From positions 1-64,000 of IMG/VR virus record IMGVR_UViG_3300034082_001676: a stretch of DNA of 64,000 nucleotides. The stretch is one strand, 5' to 3'. A program made the translations under genes and the position numbers. Each line of letters begins with the position of its first letter. Position 1 is the stretch's first letter. Under the pieces are notes generated by a model, which did not search any database, was not told the DNA's origin, and was given only the letters and a program-made list of their open reading frames with translations. The DNA comes from an uncultured virus (IMG/VR IMGVR_UViG_3300034082_001676). Taxonomy: Duplodnaviria > Heunggongvirae > Uroviricota > Caudoviricetes. Of this stretch, positions 5,327 through 63,719 are shown one piece after another.

Positions 5327-5335
5327 ATTTTCTCC

Positions 5336-8079: not shown

Positions 8080-8097
8080 ATTTTTATTTGCTCCAAA

Positions 8098-8120
8098 TTA
8101 GGGGAGTAAGTCTCCCCTAA
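8098..8120 (-). terminator. Hairpin between hsp20 and clpS (terminator or stability element)
   Basis: TTAGGGGAG-TAAGT-CTCCCCTAA inverted repeat; only a short U tract follows. Confidence 0.5.
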
Positions 8121-8124
8121 TTAA

Positions 8125-8562
8125 TTACTTAATTTCCACAATATCAATGATACGTGGTTTTTCGGATTCCGGAACGTTACGGAAAAGTTGAATTCTCAAC
8201 ATACCGTTTCTAATCTCGGCTACCTTAACTTCCATGTGCTCTGCTAAAGTAAAAGTTTTTTCAAAGTCTCGTGTAGCAAGTCCACGATGAAGGTACATGG
8301 CATCTCCTAAAGACATTTCTTTAGATTCGCCAAATACGCTCAATTGATTGCGCTCGACTTCTACTCGAATTTCTTCCTTCTCAAATCCAGTAATTGCAAT
8401 TTGAATTTCGTATTGGTCTTCATTCCATTTGAGGATATTAAATGGAGGATAGTTGGTAGACACTTGGTTGGCAAATCTGCGTTCCATTTGGTCAAACATT
8501 GTGTCAAATCCCACAAGTGCTCTGCTCAGTGTGTCTAATCTCGATAGTTGATTGTTGTTCAT
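8125..8562 (-). CDS. Small heat-shock protein Hsp20/IbpA family
   Basis: NYPPFNI, YLHRGLATRDF..TFTLAEHMEV, NGML; start moved to ATG at 8562 behind AAGGAG. Confidence 0.95.
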   Translation of the reverse strand: MNNNQLSRLDTLSRALVGFDTMFDQMERRFANQVSTNYPPFNILKWNEDQYEIQIAITGFEKEEIRVEVERNQLSVFGESKEMSLGDAMYLHRGLATRDFEKTFTLAEHMEVKVAEIRNGMLRIQLFRNVPESEKPRIIDIVEIK

Positions 8563-8567
8563 AATAG

Positions 8568-8585
8568 TCTCCTTATAAAGTAAGA
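8568..8585 (-). promoter_or_regulatory. ROSE-like SD-sequestering hairpin upstream of hsp20
   Basis: Minus strand TCTTACTTTATAAGGAGA; identical 18-mer at 10528-10545. Confidence 0.55.
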
Positions 8586-8621
8586 ACAATGGGGGCCTCG
8601 AAAGTACCCCCTATTTGACAA

Positions 8622-11841: not shown

Positions 11842-13288
11842 CTTTTTTTGCTTTCACACGTTGCCAAAGAGTGGACTTAGTCTGTTCTGCATTTTGAACG
11901 TATTCTACACTTCCTTGGTTTTCTTGATCTGCTGTGTCCCTTGTTTCTCCAACCAGGTCACTGTCTTTTTTTTTAGATTCGTCTGCGAGAACACGTTGTT
12001 CTTCTATCCATTTGGCAGCTTCGCCAGCAGCATCATCGTGATCAGGCTGCGGCCTTAGATAAGATTGCCAGGGTAGTTCTTTGATAACATTACGTTCAAA
12101 AAGTTTTCTCTGAAGTTTCAAACTGCTGTCAGGATGATCTGCTTTCCAACGGGTCATTGCAGATGCTTCACTTTCAGATGCTTGCGCCAATTCATCTTCA
12201 TCAGTGTGCTCTTCTTCTGTCGGTTCCTCAGTTTTATGGACCTGTGGACCCACTCGAAATTCTTCCGGTACTTGACTTACCCACGGTTTTAAAAGATAAG
12301 GATGTTTTTCAAAAATACCCAATTCTCTGTCTTCGACTGATAGTGTTGGTCCTTGAACCGGGAATGGCCATAATGGGCTGCCGGCCGGAATAAAAGGTTC
12401 TGCTTTTATTTTGACATCTTGCTCTGCGGCTTCTTGATCTAATTGACGAGCACGTTCTTTGCCTTGTTCGAACCATTCTTTTACTGCTAACTCGTCGTCT
12501 TCTTCTCGAGCAGTTCGGAACCATTGAAAACTGTATTGACTGGCCAACAACAAGATCACTGCCAGAGGATCAAATACCGCAACAATAATAATGATTACCC
12601 AGGTGACAGCTTTTTCTAATAGATTGGCATCTGGATTGCTTCCGTAAATAAAAGAAGCTATGTATTTTATTGGTCCAACCTCGGCCTCCACTTTTCGAAC
12701 CTCTGCCGCAATAGGTGCTCTCTCACTGTTAAGTGTAGAGATGGTCTTTTGCGATTGAGCAATTTCTTGAGTAATACGGCCGCGATCTTTTTGCTGGGCT
12801 TTACGAATTGCGACTGCTTTTTCGGCACCCTTTTCATCTGTTGAGCGACCCATAACTTGGTCCACTGCCTCATCAAGTTGTTTGAGAACTTTACGATTTG
12901 CATCTATATTTTCTTTTTCTGTTTTGATTTTCTCATCATAGACGGCAATCCTACTTTGTACGTCACCGCTTACAAGACTTTGATCACTATGTGCTTTTGA
13001 TAGGAATCCAAAGATACCCATTGATGTTATCACCATTAGGATAGCAATGGCCGCAATTAGATACGACCTAATAAAAATAGGAGCACGGGCCCAATTTATC
13101 TTGAGCCATACGGTGGCAATTAATTTGCTGACCTCTAACACAACACCCATTACAATAATAGGTATAACTGCGGCCGCAAAGATTGAAACAAGGCCAGCCA
13201 CGCTGTACCAAATTGCCACAGCAGATATAGTTAGTCCGCTTAGAAGAGCCAACCAGGCTATGATTTTATCACTTAGATTTATTTTCAT
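11831..13288 (-). CDS. Membrane protein with coiled-coil and acidic tail
   Basis: Three N-terminal TM segments, long coiled coil, another TM (VFDPLAVILLL), acidic C-terminus; TAAATA 8 nt upstream. Confidence 0.75.
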   Translation of the reverse strand: MKINLSDKIIAWLALLSGLTISAVAIWYSVAGLVSIFAAAVIPIIVMGVVLEVSKLIATVWLKINWARAPIFIRSYLIAAIAILMVITSMGIFGFLSKAHSDQSLVSGDVQSRIAVYDEKIKTEKENIDANRKVLKQLDEAVDQVMGRSTDEKGAEKAVAIRKAQQKDRGRITQEIAQSQKTISTLNSERAPIAAEVRKVEAEVGPIKYIASFIYGSNPDANLLEKAVTWVIIIIVAVFDPLAVILLLASQYSFQWFRTAREEDDELAVKEWFEQGKERARQLDQEAAEQDVKIKAEPFIPAGSPLWPFPVQGPTLSVEDRELGIFEKHPYLLKPWVSQVPEEFRVGPQVHKTEEPTEEEHTDEDELAQASESEASAMTRWKADHPDSSLKLQRKLFERNVIKELPWQSYLRPQPDHDDAAGEAAKWIEEQRVLADESKKKDSDLVGETRDTADQENQGSVEYVQNAEQTKSTLWQRVKAKKDEQ

Positions 13289-45829: not shown

Positions 45830-46166
45830 AACGATCTTCTGCATAGTCTCCAGTACCAACTTCAAATATCACACTGTTGGCCACTAGAGATTCTACTTGA
45901 TGTGGTCCTAGCTGCCCAAAGTCAGCAGTCTGTCCTTCTTCTAGCACAGCTTCTTTTACTTCTCCGGTGGCAACATCGATAAATTTAACTTTGAACTTGC
46001 CTGCATTCACAAACCAACTCTTGGCTTTTTCTTTGTGAAACACCAAACTGGTCTTGGCCCCTGCACGTTCAAATACCAATAGTTTGCCGCAGTATTTGTC
46101 GTTGTTGGCAAACACCAATTCAAATCCCCAACCCTTGTCTATTTTACCCAATGTCTGTAAGTTCAT
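45783..46166 (-). CDS. Cupin-fold protein
   Basis: KGWGFE...YCGKLL...SLVFHKEK...H...EV. Confidence 0.75.
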
Positions 46167-46750
46167 TATCTCTCCGTTATAATTTTGTCGATGAGTCCGT
46201 AGGCCAATGCTTCATCAGCACTCATAAATTTGTCTCGTTCCATATCAGCAGTCATCTGTGCAAAAGTTTTGCCCTGGCTGTTGTGTTTGACATAGATTTC
46301 AGTCAATGTCTTTTTCATTTTAATAATCTCTTCAACTTGAATCTGCATATCTGTGGCCTGTCCGCGAGCACCGCCACTGGGTTGATGAATCATGTGTCGA
46401 GCATTGGGCAACATAAAACGTTTGCCTTTGGCTCCGGCAGTGGCCAACAATGATCCCATTGAACAGGCCTGTCCCATAACATAGGTTGATACATCGGGTT
46501 TGATAAATTGCATGGTGTCATAGATGCTCATACCCGATGTGACAACTCCACCGGGACTGTTGATAAACAGGCTGATGTCTTTGTCTGGATTTTCACTTTC
46601 TAGAAATAGTAATTGGGCTACAATAACATTGGCCATTTGATCCTCTACAGGACCATTCAGCATGATAATTCTTTCTTTGAGCAGTCGGCTGTAAATGTCG
46701 TAGGCTCGTTCGCCTTTACTAGATGATTCAATTACCATTGGTACTAACAT
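46166..46750 (-). CDS. clpP: ATP-dependent Clp protease proteolytic subunit
   Basis: [32 protein letters not shown]. Confidence 0.98.
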
Positions 46751-46878: not shown

Positions 46879-47394
46879 ATGAGCAGTACACTTTTATTAA
46901 ACGCAGATATGCAACCCGTGAGCCTACTTCCACTGAGTGTGGTCGAATGGCAGGAAGCCATCAGATATATGGTCCTAGACAAGGTCAAGGTGCTTGAATG
47001 GCACGAAGATTGGATAGTACACAGTGCTAGATGGCAGACTCGTGTGCCTGCGGTGATCATGTTGAATCAATATCAAAAACCCAAGCACACTATGAGATTA
47101 AGCAAACGCAACATATTTCTGCGTGATGCCTACACCTGCCAATATTGTGGCATCGCAGTCACAGAAGTCACTGCCACGTTGGATCACGTACTGCCTGTGA
47201 GCAAAGGTGGCAAGACCACTTGGGAAAACTCCGCCACTGCCTGCAAGAGCTGCAACTACAAGAAAGCAGCTCACGTGGGCAAGATGAAGCCAAAGATCAC
47301 ACCCTACAAGCCTACATTTTGGGATCTAGTGGCTAAACGCCGAGATAGAGGCTATCATTTTCATCACCCCAGCTGGTCCAACTATTTAGGCTAA
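46879..47394 (+). CDS. HNH endonuclease (McrA-like)
   Basis: LLLNAD, RDAYTCQYCG, TLDHVLPVSKGG, ACKSCN. Confidence 0.93.
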   Translation: MSSTLLLNADMQPVSLLPLSVVEWQEAIRYMVLDKVKVLEWHEDWIVHSARWQTRVPAVIMLNQYQKPKHTMRLSKRNIFLRDAYTCQYCGIAVTEVTATLDHVLPVSKGGKTTWENSATACKSCNYKKAAHVGKMKPKITPYKPTFWDLVAKRRDRGYHFHHPSWSNYLG

Positions 47395-51117: not shown

Positions 51118-51668
51118 TTGGTTTGGTGTTGCTGTCAGCCGCAACTGCGCAGGCAGAGTGTTATACTCGCTCGTCTACCGTGAGCAAACTGACTTCATCA
51201 ATTGAACAGATTGCAGATGTAGAACGAAAGGTGTTACCAGAAGGCAACGGTAAGAACTTGTGCCGAATTACATTTCGAGCCTATATCAATAACAAATGGC
51301 ATACTGCTCAAGGTGAGGAAATTGGCAGTGTCAATGACAGTTTGGATACTATCTGTGCCAAGGCGTTGAATTCCGGGCGTGTGAGTATTTTGGAATCTGT
51401 AAGTGGTACTAAAATTACCGGCAGTCAAGAATTGATTTGCACAGATGAACCCAAACCTAAACACAAGGCCACAGTATCTGTAGGTGATTTGATTTGGGAA
51501 AGTGAAGTTCAAGTGCATCCTGCCTACAAAGATATATTTAGATACAGAGGCAGTTTCTGTAAATGGTTTATTGAATCCAAACCCGATATTGGAAAAGTTG
51601 ATATGCAACAAGGAATTATTTGTCGAAGTCCCGATCAAAAGGTTTGGCGAGTGGTTGACAAGTGGTAA
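51102..51668 (+). CDS. Secreted Cys-containing protein
   Basis: Signal peptide ending AQA-EC; 6 Cys. Confidence 0.7.
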   Translation: MSRLLIGLVLLSAATAQAECYTRSSTVSKLTSSIEQIADVERKVLPEGNGKNLCRITFRAYINNKWHTAQGEEIGSVNDSLDTICAKALNSGRVSILESVSGTKITGSQELICTDEPKPKHKATVSVGDLIWESEVQVHPAYKDIFRYRGSFCKWFIESKPDIGKVDMQQGIICRSPDQKVWRVVDKW

Positions 51669-51683
51669 TTTTCACAGTATAAT
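51655..51683 (+). promoter_or_regulatory. Perfect-consensus sigma70 promoter
   Basis: TTGACA-N17-TATAAT. Confidence 0.85.
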
Positions 51684-51710
51684 ATATACTTCACACACAG
51701 AAAGGTAGAT

Positions 51711-51839
51711 ATGAGAAACTTTATTATAGGCACAGTCTTTGGACTTATCCTAGCAACTGTTGGATTCTCCGGCATTGCTCGGATGTTGGACAATGGAGTA
51801 GACACAGTTAAAACACACAGTAAGGAGATGGCAAAATGA
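51711..51839 (+). CDS. Small single-TM protein, 42 aa
   Basis: Hand-translated MRNFIIGTVFGLILATVGFSGIARMLDNGVDTVKTHSKEMAK. Confidence 0.7.
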   Translation: MRNFIIGTVFGLILATVGFSGIARMLDNGVDTVKTHSKEMAK

Positions 51840-51965: not shown

Positions 51966-52739
51966 ATGAAAAAGACACTAATAACATTATGCGTGTTGGC
52001 GGTACTGAGCGGTTGTAGTAGTACAAAACTTTCGCCTAATTCTCCTATTGCTAGTCCTACTCCAGCAGTAACTAAAGATCAAACTGTACCTGCGCAAGGT
52101 AGAGCAGAAGCACCGTTGACTATTGATCTACCTAGTTGGTATGTCAAGGCTCCGGCAAGTACAGAAGAATATGTATTTGTCACAGGCACAGCAGTTAGTT
52201 CAGACTTGTCAATGAGTCGAGCTAAGGCCATGCTCGATGCGCAACATCAATTAGCAGACAAGATCAACGGAGTTATTGATTCTGTGTTCCGTCAAAGTCG
52301 AAAGGACAGTGCTGGTACAGTGACCAACGACTACTCAAGTCTCATGATCCGCAAGACTATTACCGATACAGCATTGACTGGTCATCATTTAGAGGACAGC
52401 CGGGTTATATCCGAGAATCGTGCGTATCGTACATTTGTATTAATTCGCTATCCAATGGGCGATACTAATCGTTTGCTCAAAGACAAACTGCAACGTGAAA
52501 CAATAAAGCAGGATAGTGACGAGGCAATTGATCGTGAGATTAATAAAAATACTAAAAAGCAGGTATCTGAGACACAGATTACACCTGTGGTATTGCCACA
52601 GATTACACCTGTGGCAGTTAGCAGGGTTCAACCACAGGATTTAAATCTGTTGCAGGTCGACAACGAAGAATATAAAAAGCGTCGAGACGAAGCACTACAG
52701 AAGCCAGGTGCTGTTGTAGGTAATATTACACTGCGTTGA
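51966..52739 (+). CDS. LPP20-like lipoprotein
   Basis: Lipobox LSGC; PSWY...GTAVSSDLSMSRAKAMLDA...LA. Confidence 0.7.
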   Translation: MKKTLITLCVLAVLSGCSSTKLSPNSPIASPTPAVTKDQTVPAQGRAEAPLTIDLPSWYVKAPASTEEYVFVTGTAVSSDLSMSRAKAMLDAQHQLADKINGVIDSVFRQSRKDSAGTVTNDYSSLMIRKTITDTALTGHHLEDSRVISENRAYRTFVLIRYPMGDTNRLLKDKLQRETIKQDSDEAIDREINKNTKKQVSETQITPVVLPQITPVAVSRVQPQDLNLLQVDNEEYKKRRDEALQKPGAVVGNITLR

Positions 52740-52755
52740 TTGTTAGGTATTAAAA

Positions 52756-53106
52756 ATGCGTTATTACATCGTCAGTTGGGATCAGCAGGGTGTAGAGTTT
52801 TTTGAAGAGATCACAGAACATCATCCTGACAATTGGGCCAAGGATCATTTGTTTGACACCATCAAACAAAACAAGCGGGTAGAAAAGCCCATGAGCTTTA
52901 GTATTCAATCATTGAAACTTCGTGCCCAATTCAACAGTCATCGCCACTATGAAATCTACGTATTCACCAGCAATGACGACATTACAAAAACAGATATTCA
53001 AGATTGGTTCACTACAGATGCTCAGAGCTTTGCCAATTGGGTACGCAAGAATTACAGCTACAAGATCTGGGATGAACGAGCCACAGAGCAAGCAGTAATT
53101 GTATGA
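52756..53106 (+). CDS. Hypothetical phage protein
   Basis: LRAQFNSHRHYEIY. Confidence 0.7.
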   Translation: MRYYIVSWDQQGVEFFEEITEHHPDNWAKDHLFDTIKQNKRVEKPMSFSIQSLKLRAQFNSHRHYEIYVFTSNDDITKTDIQDWFTTDAQSFANWVRKNYSYKIWDERATEQAVIV

Positions 53107-53321
53107 ACCTACGAATTGATAAACTAATTGATGATGCTAGGTTGACTGCTGTGGCGGAGATGTTTGAGGTTGAATTGACCAAGTTTGCCGAGTTGATTGT
53201 GGCAGAATGTATTCAGACTATTCAGATGGGTATCACTCGTGATGGCCACAATACTGAAAAGTATCAAAGGTCAATTAAACACATTAAACAGATTAAAGAA
53301 CATTTCGGAGTTGAAGAATGA
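53103..53321 (+). CDS. MNERI-family small protein, copy 1
   Basis: MNLRIDKL...KFAELIVAEC...IKEHFGVEE. Confidence 0.8.
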   Translation: MNLRIDKLIDDARLTAVAEMFEVELTKFAELIVAECIQTIQMGITRDGHNTEKYQRSIKHIKQIKEHFGVEE

Positions 53322-53554
53322 ACGACAGAATTCGTGAACTATACCAACAAGCCCATAGCATACGACACCATGACGGTGATCCTATGCGGGACGGTAATCC
53401 ACCTACTGTTTATTGGCAAGGTGAAAAGAGTGCTAAAAAGTTCGCCCAGTTGATTGTTCAGGAATGTGCAAGTATGGTAGATCTTCATGGTCGATGGATT
53501 TTGTATGATAAACTTGCTGTAAAAATTAAACGAGAGTTCGGAGTTGAAGAATGA
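53318..53554 (+). CDS. MNERI-family small protein, copy 2
   Basis: MNDRIREL...KFAQLIVQECA...IKREFGVEE. Confidence 0.8.
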   Translation: MNDRIRELYQQAHSIRHHDGDPMRDGNPPTVYWQGEKSAKKFAQLIVQECASMVDLHGRWILYDKLAVKIKREFGVEE

Positions 53555-53748
53555 ACAATGATGAAGATCCTCAGCGAGAAAAAATCTTTGAACTTCTCCA
53601 AGAGATTATATATTTAAAAGGACAGATAACTTATCTGCAGGAACAATTAAGCAGCGTAGAAGATGACCGGGATAATAGAATTGATCGGTATGAAAAACAA
53701 GTTGCTGACCTTGAACAACAATTGGGCAATGCCCTATTTCGGAGTTGA
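53551..53748 (+). CDS. Small coiled-coil protein inside the repeat array
   Basis: Starts in repeat 2, stops inside repeat 3 in a different frame (FRS*). Confidence 0.65.
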   Translation: MNNDEDPQREKIFELLQEIIYLKGQITYLQEQLSSVEDDRDNRIDRYEKQVADLEQQLGNALFRS

Positions 53749-53751
53749 AGA

Positions 53752-54045
53752 ATGATTGTTCCAGATTTAATCAAAGCCGTTGAATCAGGTTGGGAGAAAT
53801 CCAGACTTGAAGGACTTAAAATTCAAGGAAAACATCGTATGAACGAACGAATTAAAGAACTTGCTAGACAGGCAGGACTAATTGCACCCTATGGTAGTGA
53901 TCGTGAAGAGTTGAGTGATTTTGATTACAGAGAATTCGCCGAGTTGATTGTGAAAGAATGCGCCGGAAAAGTTGATTGGATCCTTGCCGAAGGTGGTAAG
54001 ACACAGGGTGATTTGATTCGGGAACATTTCGGAGTTGAAGAATGA
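53752..54045 (+). CDS. MNERI-family small protein, copy 3 (with 29 aa N-terminal extension; internal ATG 53839)
   Basis: MNERIKELARQAG...EFAELIVKECA...IREHFGVEE. Confidence 0.8.
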   Translation: MIVPDLIKAVESGWEKSRLEGLKIQGKHRMNERIKELARQAGLIAPYGSDREELSDFDYREFAELIVKECAGKVDWILAEGGKTQGDLIREHFGVEE

Positions 54046-54119
54046 GTTTTATTTTAGGATTCATTGCAGGTTACATAGTAGCAGCTATCATATATGCATA
54101 CCGTTCAAATGAAGATTAA
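54042..54119 (+). CDS. 25 aa single-TM peptide inside the array
   Basis: Hand-translated MSFILGFIAGYIVAAIIYAYRSNED; starts in repeat 4. Confidence 0.55.
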   Translation: MSFILGFIAGYIVAAIIYAYRSNED

Positions 54120-54133
54120 AGGACAACGACAGA

Positions 54134-54367
54134 ATGAATGAACGAATTCGACAACTTGCTGAACAGGCTGGGCTAACCACGGTTGCTGATGTCTACCTTA
54201 TGAAGAAATATATGCCTAACGAAGTAAAGTTCGCCGAGTTGATTGTGCAGGAATGCGCTAATATTGCACGTAATGTGGGAAACATTTCTGAACCCGATGA
54301 CTGGGCGCTGGATAGATGCTATGAGATTGAACAAAGAATTCAAGACCGTTTTGGAGTTGAAGAATGA
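54134..54367 (+). CDS. MNERI-family small protein, copy 4
   Basis: MNERIRQLAEQAG...KFAELIVQECA...IQDRFGVEE. Confidence 0.8.
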   Translation: MNERIRQLAEQAGLTTVADVYLMKKYMPNEVKFAELIVQECANIARNVGNISEPDDWALDRCYEIEQRIQDRFGVEE

Positions 54368-54555
54368 AAAAAGATTGGGACACCCAAGAACAATCAGATA
54401 TGTTTGACAAGTTTCTTGACGACACATCGGATTCAAGGTCGCAAACTTGGAAAGGTTGGCACGGCCGCCGTGCGCACGGTTACGATGAACTAGAATGGGA
54501 AGCATTTCAGTATGGATGGAATGCCGCAAAGGTATGTTTTGGAGTTAAAGAATGA
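54364..54555 (+). CDS. Small protein with unrelated body but FGVKE tail
   Basis: Bounded by repeats 5 and 6. Confidence 0.7.
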   Translation: MKKDWDTQEQSDMFDKFLDDTSDSRSQTWKGWHGRRAHGYDELEWEAFQYGWNAAKVCFGVKE

Positions 54556-54785
54556 ACATAGATCACGGTGCGATATTTCAACAATGTGTATACGATGCAG
54601 ATAATCGGTTTGTTGATTTAACACTCAGACCGGTTGCTGTGAATTCCCGTACATTTATGCTTACTATGACAGACACATCCAACGATGCAGAAATGGACAT
54701 GATGATTGAACTTTATCTCACAGAAGAAAATTTGAAAAAAGTGATTTACCGTTTGATAAATGTATTAGAAGGTATTGGAAAATGA
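54552..54785 (+). CDS. Hypothetical small protein
   Basis: Starts in repeat 6; ATGA coupling downstream. Confidence 0.65.
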   Translation: MNIDHGAIFQQCVYDADNRFVDLTLRPVAVNSRTFMLTMTDTSNDAEMDMMIELYLTEENLKKVIYRLINVLEGIGK

Positions 54786-55021
54786 ACGAACGAATCATAG
54801 AACTGGCTGACCACGCAAAAGAATATGCCAATCAGTGTACAAAGGATCTTGACGGTGACATTTCTTGGCACTGGATGGACTATTACACTGAAAAGTTCGC
54901 CGAGTTGATTGTTGAGGAATGTCTCTACATTGTCGAAGGTGAAGATGATGGTAGTGCTGATACTAAAAGTGTTCGATTGGCAATGATAAGAATGAAACAA
55001 CATTTCGGAGTTATAGAATGA
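54782..55021 (+). CDS. MNERI-family small protein, copy 5
   Basis: MNERIIELADHA...KFAELIVEEC...MKQHFGVIE. Confidence 0.8.
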   Translation: MNERIIELADHAKEYANQCTKDLDGDISWHWMDYYTEKFAELIVEECLYIVEGEDDGSADTKSVRLAMIRMKQHFGVIE

Positions 55022-55263
55022 ATCAAGTCCCGCTCAAAGCACACGAAGAATGGGCCCAGCAGAGAGTAGAAATTGCCCGGCGTGACACCGATCAGGCCTT
55101 GCATTTGGTTGCAATGGCGCATTTGAATTTGATGCAACATCTCAAGTACGGATTTGACCCAAAGACTGCACACAGCACCTTGATCAGCGTGGGACAAATA
55201 TATCCTAAACTAAAAGCAAAGATGAATGACTTGACTCGAGAGTTAGAGAATAAAAACGGTTGA
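55018..55263 (+). CDS. Hypothetical small protein
   Basis: Starts in repeat 7. Confidence 0.65.
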   Translation: MNQVPLKAHEEWAQQRVEIARRDTDQALHLVAMAHLNLMQHLKYGFDPKTAHSTLISVGQIYPKLKAKMNDLTRELENKNG

Positions 55264-55288
55264 CATTAAATGATATTGAGTGTATAAT
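55260..55288 (+). promoter_or_regulatory. Perfect-consensus sigma70 promoter
   Basis: TTGACA-N17-TATAAT. Confidence 0.85.
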
Positions 55289-55320
55289 ATACACTTAGAC
55301 AGTTAATCAAAGGACTTGAT

Positions 55321-56346
55321 ATGAGGAAGTTAGCAACCATTAGGAAGATTGATGCACTGCGTCCTATCCCGGATGCTGATGCTATCGAATGTGCAGTCGT
55401 AGGTGGATGGACGGCTGTGGTTAAGAAGGGTGAATATGCCGCAGGTGATCTTGCTGTGTACTGCGAAATCGATTCTTGGATTCCTCACGCACTGGCACCA
55501 TTTTTGAGCAAGGGCAAGGAGCCCAGAGTGTTTGATGGTATTCAAGGCGAACGTCTGCGTACAATGAAGCTTCGAGGACAGTTGAGCCAGGGGCTGTTGT
55601 TGCCATTGTCTACATTGACTATGATAGATTCGGAACTATTTGAAGGACTCGATGTATCATTTCCACTAGGCATTGTGAAATACGAAGCCCCCATCCCAGC
55701 ACAATTGGCAGGAGAAGTCAAGGGCATGTTCCCAGGTTGGATTCAAAAGACTGACCAAGAACGTGTTCAAAACTTGAAAGAAGAATTGGACTACTGGCTT
55801 AGAGAACAACACGTTTGGGAAGTTACTGAAAAGCTGGATGGCAGCTCAATGACTGTGTATCTGCGTGATGGAGAGTTTGGTGTGTGTTCACGTAATCTTG
55901 AACTCAAGCCCAGCGAAACCAACAGCCTGTGGAAGGTTGCAGTACGCAATGATTTGGAGTTGAAGCTTCGTCGTGCCGATCGTAATCTTGCACTGCAAGG
56001 TGAGTTGATTGGAGAAGGTATCCAAGGTAATCCATACAAGCAAAAAGGACAGGAATTTTTCTTGTTTGATATCTACGACATCGATACCAGCAAGTACTTT
56101 ACTCCTGCCGAACGCAAGGCATTTGTTCAAGAACACGACATCAAACACGTGCCTGTGCTGGCATTTGGGGCTGAACTGTCAGATACCCTAGGAGTCAACA
56201 GCATTGACGGAATTCTGCGTTTTGCAGAAGGTAAATCAGTTATGGGAATGATAGGTTGTGAACGTGAAGGCGTTGTGTTTAAAAGCAAGGCCATGCAATG
56301 TTCGTTCAAGGCGATCTCTAATAAATTTTTGTTAAAAAGTGAATAA
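55321..56346 (+). CDS. RNA ligase, DRB0094 family
   Basis: MRKLATIRKI..IPDADAIE N-domain; TEKLDGSS, LQGELIG, REGVVFK, FKAISN. Confidence 0.92.
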   Translation: MRKLATIRKIDALRPIPDADAIECAVVGGWTAVVKKGEYAAGDLAVYCEIDSWIPHALAPFLSKGKEPRVFDGIQGERLRTMKLRGQLSQGLLLPLSTLTMIDSELFEGLDVSFPLGIVKYEAPIPAQLAGEVKGMFPGWIQKTDQERVQNLKEELDYWLREQHVWEVTEKLDGSSMTVYLRDGEFGVCSRNLELKPSETNSLWKVAVRNDLELKLRRADRNLALQGELIGEGIQGNPYKQKGQEFFLFDIYDIDTSKYFTPAERKAFVQEHDIKHVPVLAFGAELSDTLGVNSIDGILRFAEGKSVMGMIGCEREGVVFKSKAMQCSFKAISNKFLLKSE

Positions 56347-56352
56347 GATATT

Positions 56353-56595
56353 ATGAAAACGAGCGGAACACCCTCAAGCTCTAGCCCGGGCATAACGGGC
56401 TTTATCGAAATATTCGAAGGTCGACTGAATAAGATGAAGTTGCATCTTAAAGAAGAATTGAGCAAAGCCAAACACGAACGAAATCGTAAGCTGATCAAAA
56501 GTCAGTTGGCTGAGGCCCGCAAACTTAACCGGACACTGAAAGACATGCGTAATGCCAATACCCGACTGTGTCCACATTGCGGAGAGAAGCTATGA
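56353..56595 (+). CDS. Basic hypothetical protein with C-terminal CPHCG
   Basis: 80 aa ORF. Confidence 0.7.
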   Translation: MKTSGTPSSSSPGITGFIEIFEGRLNKMKLHLKEELSKAKHERNRKLIKSQLAEARKLNRTLKDMRNANTRLCPHCGEKL

Positions 56596-56711
56596 CAGAA
56601 GGAGAACGAGCAGGACGCTGGGCTATGCTGTATATCTATACGGTGTTGTTTGCTTTATGGTTTAATATTGTCGCCATTGCGGTCTGGCATATCAAGGAGT
56701 GGTTTTTATGA
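56592..56711 (+). CDS. 39 aa single-TM peptide
   Basis: Hand-translated MTEGERAGRWAMLYIYTVLFALWFNIVAIAVWHIKEWFL; ATGA overlaps at both ends. Confidence 0.6.
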   Translation: MTEGERAGRWAMLYIYTVLFALWFNIVAIAVWHIKEWFL

Positions 56712-57040
56712 ACGAAAGAATTAGAGAACTTGCTAAACAGGCTGGTGATTATGTAAATGAAGTATATACACCGCCTGTAAGATCCAAGACTCCGGGTAAG
56801 ATTTGGGAAGATGGTCACATTGATTGGCATACACAGTTTAACGAAAAATTCGCCCGGTTGATTGTGACAGAATGTTGTCAAGCATTAAATCCCATGTTGC
56901 GTGACATGATTAGTCGCGGACAGGGAGTAGACATGGTTAAACAACATTTTGAAATGAATCTCAACGAAATCACAACGGCCATGCTGGACCGTACGATTAA
57001 CCAATGTGAACAACAATTAGCGGAGAAGAAGAATGACTGA
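56708..57040 (+). CDS. MNERI-family protein, copy 6 (extended C-terminus)
   Basis: MNERIRELAKQAG...KFARLIVTEC...VKQHFEM. Confidence 0.8.
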   Translation: MNERIRELAKQAGDYVNEVYTPPVRSKTPGKIWEDGHIDWHTQFNEKFARLIVTECCQALNPMLRDMISRGQGVDMVKQHFEMNLNEITTAMLDRTINQCEQQLAEKKND

Positions 57041-57413: not shown

Positions 57414-57929
57414 ATGATTAATATGAAAGAATGGATGGAATTGGTTGGTTATCGAATTACAGAGGGTAGTGCATACGGCTGGCAATGCTATGGTTCTGAT
57501 GCATATGCATTAGATTCGTGGAATGGTGATCACGACGGGCATAGTTTCACAGTCATCTTTGATACCAAAGACCAAACAGTTTACGAAGTGCAGGTACACG
57601 ACTATGTGCATAATCGTGCATACCGTATGATCAATCCAGACTTCCAAAAGAAAAATAAAAAAGAAGCTCGTCGTCGAGACGTCAACAAAGACGAAGCCTG
57701 GGACGATGTCAATTATATTGATCTAGAAGTAGATGACGACTTTATCCAAAAGTGTTTGGCTATTCAAGCAGGTGAAGATTATGATACAAAAGTGTCAGTT
57801 CCGTTGGAACTAGAAGATGATAAAATGTTTGAACTTATGCGTATGGCACACGAACAGGACATTACTCTAAACCAGCTGGTAGAAAATATACTGCGTAATA
57901 TGATTGCCGAAAAAGAAATTACTGTTTAG
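57414..57929 (+). CDS. Hypothetical protein with C-terminal ribbon-helix-helix-like segment
   Basis: LMRMAHEQDITLNQLVENIL. Confidence 0.7.
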   Translation: MINMKEWMELVGYRITEGSAYGWQCYGSDAYALDSWNGDHDGHSFTVIFDTKDQTVYEVQVHDYVHNRAYRMINPDFQKKNKKEARRRDVNKDEAWDDVNYIDLEVDDDFIQKCLAIQAGEDYDTKVSVPLELEDDKMFELMRMAHEQDITLNQLVENILRNMIAEKEITV

Positions 57930-58806
57930 TAGCTTGGATGTCAAAGCCGTTGCGACAGGCATCGGCTTTGCAAATTATAGAGTTTTGAACCCCTGTAAAT
58001 TCTATTCCTAGTTTTCCAACAAGGCCACCTTGACCACAGTGGCCTCGTTTTATACGGCCCCAGGCATCAACGATTAGTTGTTCAACGCCGGCCATACACT
58101 GTTGTCCGGGAAACGTATTCTTTTTCTCAAGCATAAGAGTTTGAAAGTCTGAAAATTCTTCTTCTCCTGTGTCATTAACGTAAATCAAATCTCCGTGTTG
58201 GCGTTTTAATTTTACAGCGTGTTCAAGTTTGTATTCCATCGGCTGTTTGTTAATAGCGGGATCTTCAAACAGCATCTTTCTATGAACGAGTTGATCGGGC
58301 CACATTTTTTTTATTTTAGTAATAGTATCTTCTAATTCTTGCCATCGGTCCGGCAACATACTCACTGTTATACTTACGTTTACATTTTTCTTTTTAGCAG
58401 CATATAAGCATAGCATAAAATGACTGATCGGAGTGTGTTCTGAATGTACTTCTAGATTTATACTGTCAACTGTATCTAACAGGGTTTTCCATTCTGCAAT
58501 AGGCATACTGGCATTGGTTCGTATGCATACGTTACTGTTTTTTGTCTTGATGTGTTTTATCAAATCCACAAGCCAGGGCCACTGAGTAACTTCCCCTCCT
58601 GTAAAATAATAATTACAGGTTTTGCCTAGGGTTTTGGCAAAGTCACTAACTTGATCAACAAATTTCAAACAGTGTTCGATGTTTGGCAAGTCAATACTGC
58701 CACTTTTTATAATATCAGGACAATAACTGCAATTGTAATTGCAGTGATTCATCAACCACCAGTCGATATAGAAATATCGATTGTCTCTAATACTGCGAAG
58801 TTGCAT
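57919..58806 (-). CDS. Radical SAM protein with C-terminal Cys cluster
   Basis: CNYNCSYC, FTGGEVT, C..G......G....C...C....C. Confidence 0.9.
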   Translation of the reverse strand: MQLRSIRDNRYFYIDWWLMNHCNYNCSYCPDIIKSGSIDLPNIEHCLKFVDQVSDFAKTLGKTCNYYFTGGEVTQWPWLVDLIKHIKTKNSNVCIRTNASMPIAEWKTLLDTVDSINLEVHSEHTPISHFMLCLYAAKKKNVNVSITVSMLPDRWQELEDTITKIKKMWPDQLVHRKMLFEDPAINKQPMEYKLEHAVKLKRQHGDLIYVNDTGEEEFSDFQTLMLEKKNTFPGQQCMAGVEQLIVDAWGRIKRGHCGQGGLVGKLGIEFTGVQNSIICKADACRNGFDIQATKQ

Positions 58807-59364
58807 CTAGGCCATCCAACTGTCAGTGGCCTGTTCTCCGCATAACTGCGTGGATTCTATCCACATCTCTTTGGTATTCGTTTCTAAAAGCCAAACTGGA
58901 TCAGGTGTTTTTAAAGTCAGCCAGCTTTGTTGTCTGCTCCACGGCGGATCGCCTAGTAGCTCGCCTTCAAGTTGTCCTGGGCCCCAGCTGCTTTGTCCAA
59001 AAAATATTCTAAAACGCTCTGGATAATCGTTGTCGGCTAGATGATGAAACATACCAACATTGCTGGTCATTGACCAATCGGCATTGATCCTATGTGTTGA
59101 ATCCATCTTCCAATCACTGTGATGTAACATCCATACTGTGTTGAGTCCCACTGGACCACCCCAATAGAGATTGAAATCTTGAGCCAGCTCTATGTTTATT
59201 TCTTTGAGGACGCTGTTTATTGAATGGCTTGTTGGGCGATTTACACAGAGTGCCAGAGAACCTCGATTTGTACTATGAGTGACCAGTAACACTGTTTTGT
59301 CAAATCTTGAATCGCTCATGTTAGGAGGAGATATTAATAAATCTCCTTTTTCGATTCTATGCAT
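58807..59364 (-). CDS. YqgE/AlgH family protein (DUF179)
   Basis: LLISPPNMSDSRF..TVLL, YWGGPV, GQSSWGPGQLEGEL...SWL. Confidence 0.9.
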   Translation of the reverse strand: MHRIEKGDLLISPPNMSDSRFDKTVLLVTHSTNRGSLALCVNRPTSHSINSVLKEINIELAQDFNLYWGGPVGLNTVWMLHHSDWKMDSTHRINADWSMTSNVGMFHHLADNDYPERFRIFFGQSSWGPGQLEGELLGDPPWSRQQSWLTLKTPDPVWLLETNTKEMWIESTQLCGEQATDSWMA

Positions 59365-59370
59365 TCTAGA

Positions 59371-59613
59371 TCAACTCCAGTCTGGAAGTGGGCCGCCATA
59401 TTTCTTGCCCTTGATTCTTTTGCCTTTTACTGTGGTGCGCTCATTGCCAATCTTGTGTGATTTATTGCCGTGTCGACCACGATAGCCTTGGCTCTTGCAG
59501 CTGGCCAGTTGACTGGCACCTAGTGCAGCATTGGGTTTGCCGCTCGTGCAAAGAGCTCGGCTCGCGGGCTCTTCGTCTAATTCTTTGTTTTGGATAACTT
59601 CAAATATTCGCAT
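59371..59613 (-). CDS. Small basic protein, 80 aa
   Basis: MRIFEV N-terminus, TAAATA 4 nt upstream; Lys/Arg/Gly-rich tail. Confidence 0.7.
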   Translation of the reverse strand: MRIFEVIQNKELDEEPASRALCTSGKPNAALGASQLASCKSQGYRGRHGNKSHKIGNERTTVKGKRIKGKKYGGPLPDWS

Positions 59614-59623
59614 CAAGTATTTA

Positions 59624-60793
59624 TTAGGATTCAAAAGTTTTGTCGCCGGGCCAAAGAGGCAGTTTGGTACCTGGCGCTCTTTTAGGTATTTTACTGTCTG
59701 CACTGCTTACACAGCTAGGACTAATACAAGGTTTAGGGCCGTCAAAAAGCTGAAATCCTGTTTCTATATTACCTAACGGTGCATCGTGGCAACTATAGCT
59801 ACGTTTAATGCTGCCGTCTGGTTCACGTATAATAATGCCTCTGTAGCCGCTTGAGCATTCCCAATCTGTAAACTTGTTAAAATTAAAAGCATTGAACCGT
59901 TCAGCTTGATCCATGTACCAAATCTTCTGTTCTTTATCTACGAACTCTACTTGAAAATGCTGTGGTATTTTACTGTGTTCTTGCTTGTAAATAGGATCTG
60001 GTGTTTTAAAGAATTTGGGTTCAGGACGTTTAACTAACTTGGTCTTGGTTGCTTTATCTTCAGTGAAGGCACGTTGCGGCATACCGTTGTGTAGACGTTT
60101 TAACATGTCAGGAGTATATCCATCAACTACACGACTAGCAGTGGGATCACTCTGAGGCTTTAGTGTAACATTGATGCCTTGATTGTGAAAGAACAGAGCA
60201 TTTTCAAAATCACGTTCAAACCATTCAGGAACCATAACCTGATTAATAGTTATTTGAACATCGTGTTGCTGGCATAGTATTAGTTTGTCGGCAAACTCCT
60301 GCATCTTCTCGGGTGTGTCTACGTGTTCTGTATGTAAACTAGCAGTGATACTAGCACGATGAAATTTACTAACAGCAGGACAATACTTTTCTTCAAACCA
60401 TTTAAGTGGTCTACTCATATTGCTAGTCATGTGTACGCTAGTATAGTTTGTGTTTGCTACATCATCATTTAGATAATTAAGGATATCAATATAACCAGGA
60501 TGGAAGGTAGGCTCGCCGCCACTAAGACTAAAATGAAAACTGTTAAAATTGCGTTCTCTAGCTTGTCGTTTGATTTCATCTATTGTGCGTAAACACAGTT
60601 CGGTTGGTCTGTGGTCTTTTGTATCACTGCGGGCATAGGGCCAGCAATAGCTACAACGGTAATTACAATAACGTCCTAACAGCCAACTGACTGTAAAGAG
60701 ATCTTTGTACAACATTGTACGTTGTCCTACACGAACAATATCGTTGTAGGGTATTTGGGTAAAGTCGTAGGCCGACCAACTTAAATCATTCAT
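59624..60793 (-). CDS. Radical SAM protein with C-terminal Cys cluster
   Basis: CNYRCSYC, LSGGEPT, CSSG...C...C....C. Confidence 0.9.
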   Translation of the reverse strand: MNDLSWSAYDFTQIPYNDIVRVGQRTMLYKDLFTVSWLLGRYCNYRCSYCWPYARSDTKDHRPTELCLRTIDEIKRQARERNFNSFHFSLSGGEPTFHPGYIDILNYLNDDVANTNYTSVHMTSNMSRPLKWFEEKYCPAVSKFHRASITASLHTEHVDTPEKMQEFADKLILCQQHDVQITINQVMVPEWFERDFENALFFHNQGINVTLKPQSDPTASRVVDGYTPDMLKRLHNGMPQRAFTEDKATKTKLVKRPEPKFFKTPDPIYKQEHSKIPQHFQVEFVDKEQKIWYMDQAERFNAFNFNKFTDWECSSGYRGIIIREPDGSIKRSYSCHDAPLGNIETGFQLFDGPKPCISPSCVSSADSKIPKRAPGTKLPLWPGDKTFES

Positions 60794-61340
60794 AAGGTTG
60801 TTGTAACGGATCTATACTAATTTCATTTACACAAATATCTTTTGGTTGTTCTACAATCCATTTAATATATAGTGCGGCTTGAACAATGTCTAAACATTTT
60901 CTTGTAGGATGTTTAGATTGTACATTTGTTAAACTTCCAAAACTAACTAAGGTAATTTTAGGACCGTTATCCCAAACACCATTCATACCTAGTGTATTGC
61001 AGTAGTCTCTCAATGCTTTCTTTTCTGCGTTATACAACCAAGCGCCGCCTTTCTTCACACGGTCAGTGGTAGATCCTATGCAAATGATTTGAAGTCTATG
61101 ATTATTCTCTGTACATTTTTTGTAAACTGCATCTAATAAAATAGTTTGATTAAATTTATGTAAAGCACTACAGTTTATAAAGATATCATAATCTAATGTG
61201 AGATCCGCTAGTTTTTTCTGATCATCATTTTTTGTTAGATCAAAGCCTGTAGTACGGCTAGCAAAAAAAACATCTGGGTACAATTTAAATAATTCGGCAG
61301 CAAGGCCGTAATTTTTATTTCCTGCTACTAGTATTTTCAT
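60786..61340 (-). CDS. Short-chain dehydrogenase/reductase-like protein
   Basis: ILVAG...GL, FINCSA, IGS, YNAEK (YxxxK). Confidence 0.75.
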   Translation of the reverse strand: MKILVAGNKNYGLAAELFKLYPDVFFASRTTGFDLTKNDDQKKLADLTLDYDIFINCSALHKFNQTILLDAVYKKCTENNHRLQIICIGSTTDRVKKGGAWLYNAEKKALRDYCNTLGMNGVWDNGPKITLVSFGSLTNVQSKHPTRKCLDIVQAALYIKWIVEQPKDICVNEISIDPLQQPYE

Positions 61341-62496
61341 ATGATAATTCTGGTATTAAAGTTGCTAGATCTTGGTTGCGAGACTTGTCTAGTGCGTTTG
61401 TATAATGATAAAACTTAGGAAGTTTATGACTCCAGTCTTCTGCATTCATATAATCAATAATTCCTTTGACTTTATCTATATGCAGATAAGGTTCTAATAA
61501 TTTAACCACTTGTTCTTTTAGATGCTGTGGCAAGACCCGGATGTTTAATTCTTCCGGGTGATTTAAAATATTAAAATAAATTCTATGTCCGTAGGGAACT
61601 GCCCAATCTATTAATTCGTTGAGGCGAAGTATATTATACATCTGTACTGTGCAATGGATCTCTATTGAACAATTTTTTAATGTTCTTATCTTTTCAAAGT
61701 TTTCTTGGATATGCTGCCAACTGCTGGGAAATCTAATATAACGATCAAGTTCTCCTGTTGCATCAATAGAACAATTCAATTGTACACGTTTAAAATGCGT
61801 CCACCGATCTAATAAATGTTTTGGAACATTAGTAAGATTTGTGTTGTATTTCAATCTAATATTTTTAGCAGTACCCCTATCTATAAAATAATCCAAGAGT
61901 TTGTGCTGTGCTTTAATAATTGTTGGCTCGCCGCCTGTTAGATATATTTCTTCTACAGTGTCAGCAATAAGATATAAATTTTCCCAAGTTTTTTCTCTTT
62001 CAGGCCAATCCATGTTGTTTAATCTATTGTATTCGCTTTGACTAAGAACTTCTCCTATCAAGGGCCATTCTGCTGTCCACATATTACTAGCATAAGGATT
62101 ACACATACGACATTTTAGATTACACAAATTACTTAATCGAATGTCAACATATCTAATATTAAATGTCGCCTGGATCGGATACTCTCGGTCCGTCCCCCAT
62201 TTATCGTTGGCTGCTTGTCTTGCACTTTTAATACCTGCATCTTCTTCTCGAAAACATCTAACGCACATGTCAGGTCGTTCTCCATCTAAAAACTGCTGTC
62301 TTATTTTTGTATATGTAGGACTATTCCAAGCTTCTAACATATCATCACGTTGTATTTGATATGACGAGCCAGGACTTTTTAAAATGTTATTGTTTTTGGG
62401 ATCGCTGTTGCAACAAACACGTAAATTTCCGCTGGCATTTGTAGCCAAATGCATCCATGGCAATACACAGAATGTTTTAGAAGTTATTTCATCCAT
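61315..62496 (-). CDS. Radical SAM protein with N-terminal twitch/SPASM-like domain
   Basis: FCVLPW...VCC...CVRC then CNLKCRMC, TGGEP. Confidence 0.9.
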   Translation of the reverse strand: MDEITSKTFCVLPWMHLATNASGNLRVCCNSDPKNNNILKSPGSSYQIQRDDMLEAWNSPTYTKIRQQFLDGERPDMCVRCFREEDAGIKSARQAANDKWGTDREYPIQATFNIRYVDIRLSNLCNLKCRMCNPYASNMWTAEWPLIGEVLSQSEYNRLNNMDWPEREKTWENLYLIADTVEEIYLTGGEPTIIKAQHKLLDYFIDRGTAKNIRLKYNTNLTNVPKHLLDRWTHFKRVQLNCSIDATGELDRYIRFPSSWQHIQENFEKIRTLKNCSIEIHCTVQMYNILRLNELIDWAVPYGHRIYFNILNHPEELNIRVLPQHLKEQVVKLLEPYLHIDKVKGIIDYMNAEDWSHKLPKFYHYTNALDKSRNQDLATLIPELSYENTSSRK

Positions 62497-63719
62497 TTTT
62501 TTAAAAACTCAAATTTTTCAAACGTTTCATCTCTTGCGCCGTCAAGTGTTTTATTATACTCTAAAAACTTATTCCATTTAGTGTTATCATATTGTTCAGA
62601 TCCATTAAAAAATCTAACAACATCTCTAATACTATTGCCTACATTTAATTGTAAACCGTTCAAGTTGTCTTGATGTTTTAGATAAGATTCTAGTTTTACT
62701 TTAATTTCTTGCCGGGCTTCACCGGTCCAGATTCTACTGTCTAAGAACTTTGGCCAAGTGACAAAATGAACTCCTGTGAACACCTTCATATTTTTGAACC
62801 ATTCGAACGTTTCGGGGACATAGTAAATGTTCAGCGCCTGTACTGTTATTTTTCCCTGTATAAAAACATTAGGTAATTCTTTCTGCAATAGTCTTATGTT
62901 ATCTTCGATTACTTTGCTATCTGCTCCTGATCTAATATATTCATTAAGATCTGGAGGCCCATCTAAACTCACTGCTGCAATAACTTTTTTAAATTTTTTC
63001 CAGTAATCAACTACATTGTATTTTTTATTAGATAGCATACTTAAATTAGTTGCATAATTTAAAGTAATCTTATCAGCGCGATGCATTACACTTTCAAGAA
63101 TTCTATAATGATCATTGTCGTATAAAGGTTCGCCGCCCGCAAACCAAATTTCATCTACATTACTCATCAACTCTGGTAAGTTTTCAAAAAATTCTTCCGG
63201 ATAACTCTTTAACAATGATTTTTTAGTTAGATTAAGATCTATCATTTCTTGTTGCCAACTATCTTCGTGTAGGTGTGATATTTTTTTATAATCTTCAAAC
63301 CAACGTGTACTATCCATAGGGTGGCACATACGACATTTAAAATTGCAAAGATTGCTAAGTTTAAATTCTATCCAAGTAGGCTTATTGTTTAAACTATAAT
63401 CTTCGTTAATAGATTTTAAATTTGTTTCTGCATTAATTACCTGTCTGCCCACTGAAGAGCTGTTGTACTTCATACGAAGACTTTGGGCGCCAACATCTTC
63501 CAGTTTCCAGCAGACATCACAGCGTTCGTTTCTAACGCCGTTTATAAGGTCGTTGCGAAGCTGTTTCATTTCTTCGTTGTTCCAGGCCTGAAGCAAAGTT
63601 TCTTTTTTAATATTTGATAATGCTGGCAAACTTCTGCAGCAGGCCTTTATACTACCGTCAGTTTTAGTAGATAGGTGTGTAAACGGAGCAATACAAAAAG
63701 TTTCTTTTTTTACATCCAT
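62484..63719 (-). CDS. Radical SAM protein with N-terminal twitch/SPASM-like domain
   Basis: FCIAPF...ACC...CDVC then CNFKCRMC, AGGEP. Confidence 0.9.
   Translation of the reverse strand: MDVKKETFCIAPFTHLSTKTDGSIKACCRSLPALSNIKKETLLQAWNNEEMKQLRNDLINGVRNERCDVCWKLEDVGAQSLRMKYNSSSVGRQVINAETNLKSINEDYSLNNKPTWIEFKLSNLCNFKCRMCHPMDSTRWFEDYKKISHLHEDSWQQEMIDLNLTKKSLLKSYPEEFFENLPELMSNVDEIWFAGGEPLYDNDHYRILESVMHRADKITLNYATNLSMLSNKKYNVVDYWKKFKKVIAAVSLDGPPDLNEYIRSGADSKVIEDNIRLLQKELPNVFIQGKITVQALNIYYVPETFEWFKNMKVFTGVHFVTWPKFLDSRIWTGEARQEIKVKLESYLKHQDNLNGLQLNVGNSIRDVVRFFNGSEQYDNTKWNKFLEYNKTLDGARDETFEKFEFLKKWMK

Follow-up and report, generated by a model that had tools for sequence, protein, structure and literature searches.

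A repeated stop, ribosome-site and start junction in a mini-gene array of a lake phage and its probable role as a homology tract

Gene content of the array and anatomy of the repeat

The IMG/VR record IMGVR_UViG_3300034082_001676, from an uncultured virus of the Caudoviricetes, was found to carry an array of small genes in which a short repeat, TTYGGAGTTGAAGAATGA, recurs on one strand in seven copies between positions 53301 and 55021. The window analysed is the first 64 kb of this 72.6-kb record, which is rated about 20% complete. An initial annotation of the sequence had described seven copies of a 21-nucleotide (nt) repeat, spaced by 188–466 nt, and had taken it for a recombination or protein-binding site of an integron-like system. 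A pattern search of the record confirmed the number, starts and spacing of the copies, and a scan of all 72,577 bases disclosed no further one; TTYGGAGTTGAAGAATGA at up to 2 mismatches gave 7 forward matches, 0 reverse matches and 0 for the reversed control. The length of the repeat had to be revised, as the 21-mer is exact only at 53301 and 54025 and the constant core is its last 18 bases. With up to 3 mismatches allowed, the 21-mer matched six sites, all on the + strand, at 53301 (0 mismatches), 53534 (2), 53735 (1), 54025 (0), 54347 (2) and 55001 (2), and a match was obtained in none of 100 dinucleotide shuffles. The copy at 54535 differs at 4 of the 21 positions and was recovered through the 18-base core, not by the 21-mer search.

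The genes from 51966 to 55263 are all on the + strand and are flanked by two promoters of the consensus sigma-70 type (TTGACA-17-TATAAT, 12 of 12 positions), with none in between. The first promoter, at 51655–51683 (+), lies upstream of the array and would serve it as an operon, and the second, at 55260–55288 (+), is ahead of an RNA ligase gene (55321–56346). Between them are 12 open reading frames (ORFs), most of which are linked by ATGA overlaps. The first ORF of the operon (51966–52739, 257 aa) belongs to no Pfam or PHROG family and has an N-terminus that by eye resembles a lipoprotein signal. It is followed by an unnamed ORF (52756–53106, 116 aa), with relatives at 28–37% in 7 other loci and an ATGA overlap with the next gene.

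The remaining ten ORFs are five members of one mini-protein family and five small unrelated ORFs, here termed cargo genes. Family gene 1 (53103–53321, 72 aa, MNLRI...FAELIVAEC...HFGVEE) contains a middle block, AAG TTT GCC GAG TTG ATT GTG GCA GAA TGT, at 53181–53210 and ends in junction copy 1 (53301–53321), an exact 21-mer that forms the tail of this gene together with the Shine-Dalgarno (SD) sequence and ATG of family gene 2 (53318–53554, 78 aa; middle block at 53438–53467). Copy 2 (53534–53554) leads into a cargo gene for a 65-aa coiled-coil-like protein (53551–53748), and copy 3 (53735–53755) lies out of frame with this ORF, whose stop at 53746–53748 falls inside it. Family gene 3 (53752–54045, 97 aa) has a 29-residue N-terminal extension, so that its MNERI start block is found at 53839, and a middle block at 53932–53961; its end is copy 4 (54025–54045), again an exact 21-mer, which is followed by a cargo gene for a hydrophobic 25-aa peptide (54042–54119). 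Family gene 4 (54134–54367, 77 aa, modelled as three helices; middle block at 54227–54256) ends in copy 5 (54347–54367). Next come a cargo gene of 63 aa with the C-terminus CFGVKE (54364–54555), copy 6 (54535–54555, core GGAGTTAAAGAATGA), and a cargo gene of 77 aa (54552–54785) that ends in an ATGA overlap without a junction block. Family gene 5 (54782–55021, 79 aa; middle block at 54893–54922) has an HFGVIE tail in copy 7 (55001–55021, GGAGTTATAGAATGA), and the final gene of the array is a cargo gene of 81 aa (55018–55263).

All seven copies contain GGAG-N7-ATG, with TTGAAGA as spacer and an ATGA in which the start overlaps a stop. Their ATG codons open the ORFs at 53318, 53551, 53752, 54042, 54364, 54552 and 55018, and the preceding ORF ends in frame at the TGA in six cases, whereas at 53735 it terminates at a TGA within the block in another frame. 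In these respects the initial annotation was accurate: each copy supplies a GGAG and the next ATG, six supply the upstream stop, and copy 3 is intact although out of frame. It had also recognized that the repeat joins unrelated genes as well as paralogs, which holds, but had missed that five of the seven copies (53301, 53534, 54025, 54347 and 55001) are the 3' end of one paralog family, encoding (H/R/E)FGV(E/I)E-stop tails. The other two terminate unrelated ORFs, in frame at the end of 54364–54555 and out of frame in the coiled-coil-like gene. Downstream of the copies are two family genes, one family gene with the 29-residue extension and four unrelated small ORFs. The recurrence of the core inside genes in another reading frame was likewise confirmed: TTCG..GAGTTGA is exact at 53935, 54230 and 54896 and occurs with a single changed base at 53184 and 53441, and this look-alike is the middle block of the mini-protein family. 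As alignments showed, the joint tract is really about 60–65 nt long, from ATTAAAGAACAT... to ...GCTGAACAGGC.

ATGA stop/start overlaps with an SD sequence inside the upstream gene lead to translational coupling. From its anatomy, and from what is established on SD spacing and ATGA overlaps, the block is likely to act as a ribosome site and coupling joint.

The mini-protein family and conservation of its blocks as DNA

Members of the family share the layout start block MNERI(K/R)ELAxQAG, variable segment 1, middle block KFAELIVxEC, variable segment 2 and HFGVEE-stop tail, and the variable segments are 39–114 nt (V1) and 42–159 nt (V2) long. Six paralogs occur in the window, five with all three blocks; the sixth (56708–57040, +) has the start and middle blocks and a long different tail without a junction block. 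This gene is preceded by a 47-aa membrane ORF (56568–56711, +), which overlaps it by ATGA without a block and has a 79% DNA match at positions 3473–3592 of another viral locus, L040, there behind a junction block.

With the gene at 54134–54367 as query, 319 database relatives were obtained at E ≤ 0.01, and 97 of the best 120 end in RFGVEE. Peptide-pattern matches to the family in IMG/VR exceed 651, and a profile hidden Markov model gave 237 family matches in this record and 77 viral loci, at densities of up to 8 in 8 kb. The family corresponds to no Pfam or PHROG model. An AlphaFold model built with 41 sequences (mean predicted local distance difference test score 79) has three helices, at residues 3–11, 28–48 and 57–73, with variable segment 1 as a low-confidence loop and the GVEE tail beyond the last helix. 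Foldseek found no fold match for this model in the PDB (best E 2.7), and the ESM Atlas gave only viral 'hypothetical protein' clusters. Literature searches with HFGVEE, FAELIV, MNERIKEL, MNERIREL and GGAGTTGAAGAATGA, with supplements outside their scope, gave only unrelated chance occurrences of 'faeliv'. The family is thus a very large, unnamed and very abundant group of phage mini-proteins of about 75 residues, predicted to fold as three helices.

Conservation of the blocks as DNA was assessed from codon counts in 207 unique family ORFs of the 77 other viral loci, 145 of which end in FG[VI]xx-stop. Peptide patterns of the start and middle blocks, but not of the tail, had served to choose the loci, and the long ORFs of the same loci provided the codon background. 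In the tail, Gly is encoded by GGA in 140/145 cases (background 23%), Val by GTT in 130/136 (35%), and Glu by GAA in 118/123 at the first and 124/125 at the second position (73%), while the stop is TGA in 138 and part of an ATGA overlap in 134 of the 145. Arg of the start block is CGA in 124/139 (13%), and in the middle block Ala is GCC in 132/156 (23%), Leu TTG in 141/156 (25%) and Glu GAG in 122/137 (27%). A single codon accounts for at least 85% in 15 of 21 conserved block columns; in the control, the RNA ligase from 59 unique relatives, 8 of 126 conserved columns reach this level and the commonest codon has on average a share of 0.60, the control proteins (median identity 62%) being more similar to each other than the family paralogs are. 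A silent Val site within the middle block is free (GTG 62, GTT 61, GTC 17, GTA 9), which indicates that the family has existed long enough for unconstrained sites to randomise. Conservation of the repeat as DNA beyond the need of the protein, as had been claimed initially, was therefore borne out by the codon freeze relative to both background and RNA ligase, and freely varying third positions were not observed. A dual constraint on the joint, as coding sequence and as ribosome site, may account for the freeze, along with repeated conversion towards the majority sequence.

These counts bear on the explanation that conservation is purely at the protein level after tandem duplication, the DNA identity being incidental. 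Five of the seven copies are in-frame paralog tails and the FGVEE end is conserved, as this explanation would have it, but the silent sites are frozen far beyond the codon background and the RNA ligase control, copy 3 is out of frame, copies elsewhere follow stops or sit on unrelated ORFs, and the GVEE tail is not part of the last helix in the model. It is largely refuted, and its probability is very small.

Copies were also found outside the family. A 15-mer of the block, searched with up to 1 mismatch in 608 kb of loci, gave 176 copies, of which 134 end family ORFs and 42 either terminate unrelated ORFs (zinc-ribbon-like, coiled-coil, membrane peptides) or come right after a stop, where they are non-coding. 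The exact 18-mer alone occurs in at least 137 stretches of IMG/VR, and the 80 loci listed provided 102 unique contexts; 65 of these contexts have an in-frame middle block upstream and 35 have none by the strict pattern, about nine of the latter being family variants by eye. The gene downstream belongs to the family in 40 and is another gene in 62 of the 102 contexts. The downstream proteins of the contexts shown all begin with MN, MK, MI, MT, MS, MR or MM, in agreement with ATGA, in which the A of TGA is the first base of the second codon. In several loci (L187, L207, L171 and L228) the middle block is in a different frame from the tail of the same gene (...SSPS*L...), as at copy 3 of the window; such frame-breaking second halves are tolerated or recent. 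The joint, middle and start blocks are nearly identical in DNA across many otherwise unrelated lake phages.

Preservation of the block even where it is non-coding also agrees with a function at the RNA level, by which the block would be kept as a translational operator, as a RegB-like cutting site at GGAG or as an optimal initiation region, the mosaics described below being a by-product. The joint comprises GGAG, a spacer that is A-rich and unstructured, and the opening codons of the downstream gene, elements that are all known to affect translation initiation. RNA folds of the seven junctions gave no stable common structure (z –1.9 to +1.0), and an unstructured joint suits a ribosome site. 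A search for the RegB family in the five carrier records (this record and four large carriers) gave no match but was uninformative, as the control genomes gave none either. Pairing in RNA between GAACTT of the start block and AAGTTC of the middle block, which are reverse complements, was considered and rejected: no covariation was seen, with 5.04 pairs against a shuffle mean of 5.02, and 230 of 2000 shuffles reached the observed covariation value. An RNA-level function thus lacks this support and leaves the equally frozen middle block unexplained; we regard it as unlikely.

Mosaic genes and homology breakpoints

Pairwise comparison of 112 complete unique family genes (6,216 pairs) gave 17 pairs with a variable half in common at ≥85% DNA identity; the other half is unrelated (<60%) in 15 of them, intermediate in one and likewise shared in one. 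Flanks are unrelated downstream in 7 of 7 testable pairs with a common second half, and upstream in 8 of 10 pairs with a common first half. Such mosaics form chains: the first half of family gene 2 (53318–53554) resembles that of a gene in L128 (91%), the second half of which is unrelated to the window gene and resembles instead that of a gene in L013 (85%), whose first half is again unrelated. A sharp limit was seen between L014 and L016, 99.9% identical over 1,048 nt in a match that ends exactly at ATGA.

The seven longest DNA matches between the window and other phages have all 14 of their ends in blocks. Window 53291–53469 matches L128 at 89.4%, from joint 1 to the middle block of gene 2, and 53537–53963 matches L136 at 79.7%, from joint 2 through the coiled-coil gene and joint 3 to the middle block of gene 3. 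The latter block is the right end of both a 458-nt match with L136 and a 113-nt match with L034, this second match (53848–53960, 86.7%) covering the first half of gene 3. A further match with L034 (54022–54138, 79.8%) runs from joint 4 through the hydrophobic peptide gene to the next start block. Positions 54343–54557 correspond to L040 4563–4777 at 94.9% and include joint 5, the 63-residue cargo gene and joint 6; positions 54537–54807 match L047 at 70%, from joint 6 through the cargo gene 54552–54785 to the next start block, and 54892–55022 match L040 at 75%, from the middle block of gene 5 to joint 7. The modules are more alike than the RNA ligase core gene of the same phages (89.4% versus 66.3% for L128, and 79.7% versus 68.8% for L136), which indicates that pieces moved between diverged phages.

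The cargo genes gave a similar picture. That at 54364–54555, shared with L040, is bounded exactly by two copies of the repeat, and its neighbours in L040 are unrelated on both sides. In L136 the coiled-coil gene has a homologue at 95% identity that carries the block out of frame in the same way; there it and the next family gene adjoin the RNA ligase gene, and the six genes found behind them in the window are missing. A more distant homologue (55%) in L052 has no block at its end. The gene of the 25-aa peptide has a 96% identical copy after the same junction in L209 and a 58% copy elsewhere in L136, without a block, and the cargo gene 54552–54785 has homologues at 44–58% in L047, L128 and L174. 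Gene order thus varies among relatives, and since homology between arrays starts and stops in the block, genes have been swapped, gained or lost there, in line with what the initial annotation had proposed for the repeat. Other material was less suited to this comparison: L085 and L086 show 100% identity over 8.5 kb, which makes them uninformative as relatives, and in the phage GenBank collection only the RNA ligase part was matched, in 9 records at 69–74% identity.

The constant blocks also stood out in lake metagenomes. Summed depth in metagenome contigs at 53246–53336, 54156–54246 and 54884–54974 is 5–15 times that of the flanks, and in one run (X17) it reaches 1488, 1066 and 702 at these blocks against about 100 beside them, so that many other phages in the same water must carry them. 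Apparent joints in Logan contigs had sides of 20–28 letters lying inside the constant blocks and derived from family genes of other phages. An RNA-library run (X22), which may contain DNA, held only relatives at 90–97%.

Breaks as sharp as that at ATGA in L014/L016 could point to a dedicated site-specific system, in which a recombinase or homing-type nuclease recognizes the block, perhaps at GAGTTGA, and moves cassettes in an integron-like manner or by homing. A cargo gene bounded by copies 5 and 6, the location of all copies on one strand within each of the five records and the 7-mer common to two blocks in different frames would agree with it, as would an HNH endonuclease gene 6 kb upstream of the array (46879–47394, +). 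However, no tyrosine or serine recombinase was found in this record (about 20% complete) or in the four large carriers, two of which are 98–100% complete: PF00589 had no match in these five records, while the control matched in 14 of 14 genomes, and a Pfam scan of 74 ORFs gave no recombinase. The absence of an integrase, already remarked on in the initial annotation, thus extends to the four carriers. Three pairs of inverted repeats are present in 52700–55400, none of them at repeat copies, and no hairpin was found at the copies. Moreover, three different blocks all behave as breakpoints, the 21-mer being one of them, and these results together speak against the designations integron-like and protein-binding site. 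GAGTTGA as a Chi-like hotspot was not convincing, as outside the array it occurs 6 times forward and 10 times reverse where about 4.3 per strand are expected, and a search for hybrids of joint and middle blocks gave two pattern matches in 1.3 Mb, both ordinary single-block variants. A dedicated system is accordingly quite improbable.

Proposed role of the joint, known systems and genome context

The joint of stop, ribosome site and start probably doubles as a short homology tract for ordinary recombination. The 21-mer, as the 3' end of a small family gene, would provide GGAG as SD sequence, the 7-nt spacer TTGAAGA and the ATGA start/stop overlap, so that the gene behind the block would be translated in step with the preceding one. 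The near-identical junction block, the start block often found behind it, and the middle block would act as short homology tracts, within which general homologous recombination may cross over between paralogs or co-infecting phages, and the expected outcome would be exchanged half-genes, exchanged whole genes and foreign cargo ORFs in joint-to-joint slots. Ribosome binding, coupling and the use of general rather than dedicated recombination enzymes are what we infer from the repeat, its family context, the silent-site freeze and the location of homology breakpoints at the blocks. Three of the five carrier records, both near-complete ones among them, contain a RecA/UvsX-type gene.

Several observations weigh against this explanation. 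In the first breakpoint test, with narrow block limits, ends were not enriched in blocks (125 of 415 against 119.9 expected), and when only sharp ends were counted within the same limits the excess was modest (57 of 134 against 38.6, z 3.6). After the limits had been widened, 120 of the 134 sharp ends lay in blocks against 52.3 expected (z 12.3), and for matches of at least 100 nt 51 of 60 ends against 21.6, but in both cases the limits were set post hoc. In addition, a match that contains a constant block ends at its far edge by construction, and the test therefore shows block-bounded mosaicism and not the exact crossover point. No block lies within 150 nt of 93 of 227 sharp ends, and in the related pair L024/L062 only one of three discontinuities is at a family block. 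L087 and L106, with RNA ligases of 94% protein identity, have no array and wholly different flanks, so that large replacements also occur without the repeat. The middle block, which has no role as ribosome site, shows a freeze as strong as that of the joint, and part of the silent-site freeze is thereby left unexplained. Last, 21 lake-water DNA runs from 2020 and 2024 hold 94–98% of the sampled words of the array, and exact contigs from runs of both years bridge copies 2–7, copy 1 being unbridged by the listed pieces; the array looks stable, with no sign of ongoing shuffling, although contigs cannot reveal rare variants.

The three blocks might alternatively be a maintained in-frame recombination scaffold, a counterpart of exon shuffling that builds a repertoire of three-helix proteins, combined with an expression socket for captured ORFs; selection for recombinability, or a nuclease that targets the blocks, such as the HNH enzymes of these phages, would in that case keep the silent sites fixed. 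This more far-reaching proposal is doubtful, but if it were true the mini-proteins would perhaps be host-takeover or anti-defence binders, whose parts are traded across unrelated giant lake phages.

Returning to the joint as a homology tract, the closest published case is that of promoter-early stem-loops (PeSLs), the only relevant work found by a topic search of the literature, which had supplements outside its scope. The PeSLs of T4-type phages are repeated sequences between small non-essential early genes, contain a sigma-70 promoter and a terminator stem-loop, have an SD sequence and a start codon at their end, and are points of homologous exchange between otherwise unrelated sequences, leading to insertions, deletions and replacements, for which mini-circles were shown (Arbiol et al. 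2010, PMC2839356; Comeau et al. 2014, PMC4122927). The repeat in the present array is likewise a short regulatory sequence recurring among small genes, in 7 of 7 copies it ends in an SD sequence and a start codon, and exchange points between otherwise unrelated sequences of related phages are seen here too. PeSLs differ in being intergenic, whereas the joint lies within the upstream coding sequence and has neither promoter nor stem-loop; since it overlaps stop and start, exchange at the joint would keep the genes translationally linked in one operon. No promoter-like site was found at six of the seven copies, and a weak 9/12 match overlaps copy 7.

A separate cassette of about 65 nt in these phages is closer to the promoter part of a PeSL than the joint is. 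It reads GGTTGACATTAAAT...TGTATAATATACACTTAGACAGTTAA..AAAGGAC..ATG, comprises a perfect sigma-70 promoter, a leader and an SD sequence, and is found in the window at 55245–55320 and 51640–51720 and in other loci at L040:2190–2246, L034:438–486 and 797–849, and L136:5921–6000 and 12334–12393, where it precedes different genes in different phages.

For the shuffling of gene parts, a parallel is given by the gp38 tail-fibre adhesins of T-even phages, in which glycine-rich motifs stand between four hypervariable segments that are interchanged (Trojet et al. 2011, PMC3157838). In both cases conserved motifs alternate with variable segments in a small modular protein and the variable parts are interchanged between phages. 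The present family differs from gp38 in having two variable segments and not four, another protein and fold, and arrays of many paralogs per genome; its last constant block is the ribosome site of the next gene, and its setting is an early-type operon and not a tail-fibre locus.

The resemblance to integrons would lie in a same-orientation array of short, mostly promoterless single-ORF units with a recurring site, presumably read from an upstream promoter. Integron cassettes are characterized by attC sites, the IntI integrase and the Pc promoter, whereas here no integrase and no attC-like imperfect inverted repeat was found, and the repeat lies in coding sequence as one of three crossover blocks. 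As no tyrosine or serine recombinase was found in the five records, and no inverted repeat, hairpin or promoter at the copies, the array does not qualify as an integron, nor the block as a PeSL. Like the joint, ordinary coupled junctions have a GGAG, a 7-nt spacer and an ATG overlapping the TGA of the upstream gene, but they differ between genes and phages, while here one fixed 15–18-mer is reused, in at least 137 exact stretches of IMG/VR. The proposed exchange is of the kind seen with PeSLs, recombination at a conserved regulatory cassette, here inside coding sequence and combined with the shuffling of half-genes.

The window comes from a large lake phage whose host-like genes include those of ribonucleotide reductase, DNA and RNA ligases, DnaK and ClpP. 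On the – strand, genes of curli-type secretion were found at 3571–5818, namely CsgG (E 4.5e-51), CsgF and an ORF with a curlin repeat, and a heme oxygenase gene lies beside that of a ferredoxin-dependent bilin reductase at 6274–7499, a gene pair best known from cyanophages. Genes for ClpS, Hsp20, a full-length DnaK/Hsp70 (E 3e-254) and ClpP are located at 7777–10523 and 46166–46750 (–). Four radical SAM genes, two of them with SPASM domains, and an AlgH-like gene at 57919–63719 (–) could form a peptide- or nucleoside-modification pathway.

Modular exchange is known in phages, but the sequences at which it takes place are rarely so clear. Here the crossover tract would consist of a stop codon, a ribosome site and a start codon, so that each exchange would yield an expressed and translationally linked gene, and two further in-frame tracts would permit the recombination of half-proteins. 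The 15–18-mer offers a simple sequence handle for locating such arrays and their cargo genes in metagenomes, and points to a very abundant protein family without a name. Taken together, the joint and its companion blocks would account for the maintenance and renewal of extensive sets of tiny early genes in large lake phages.

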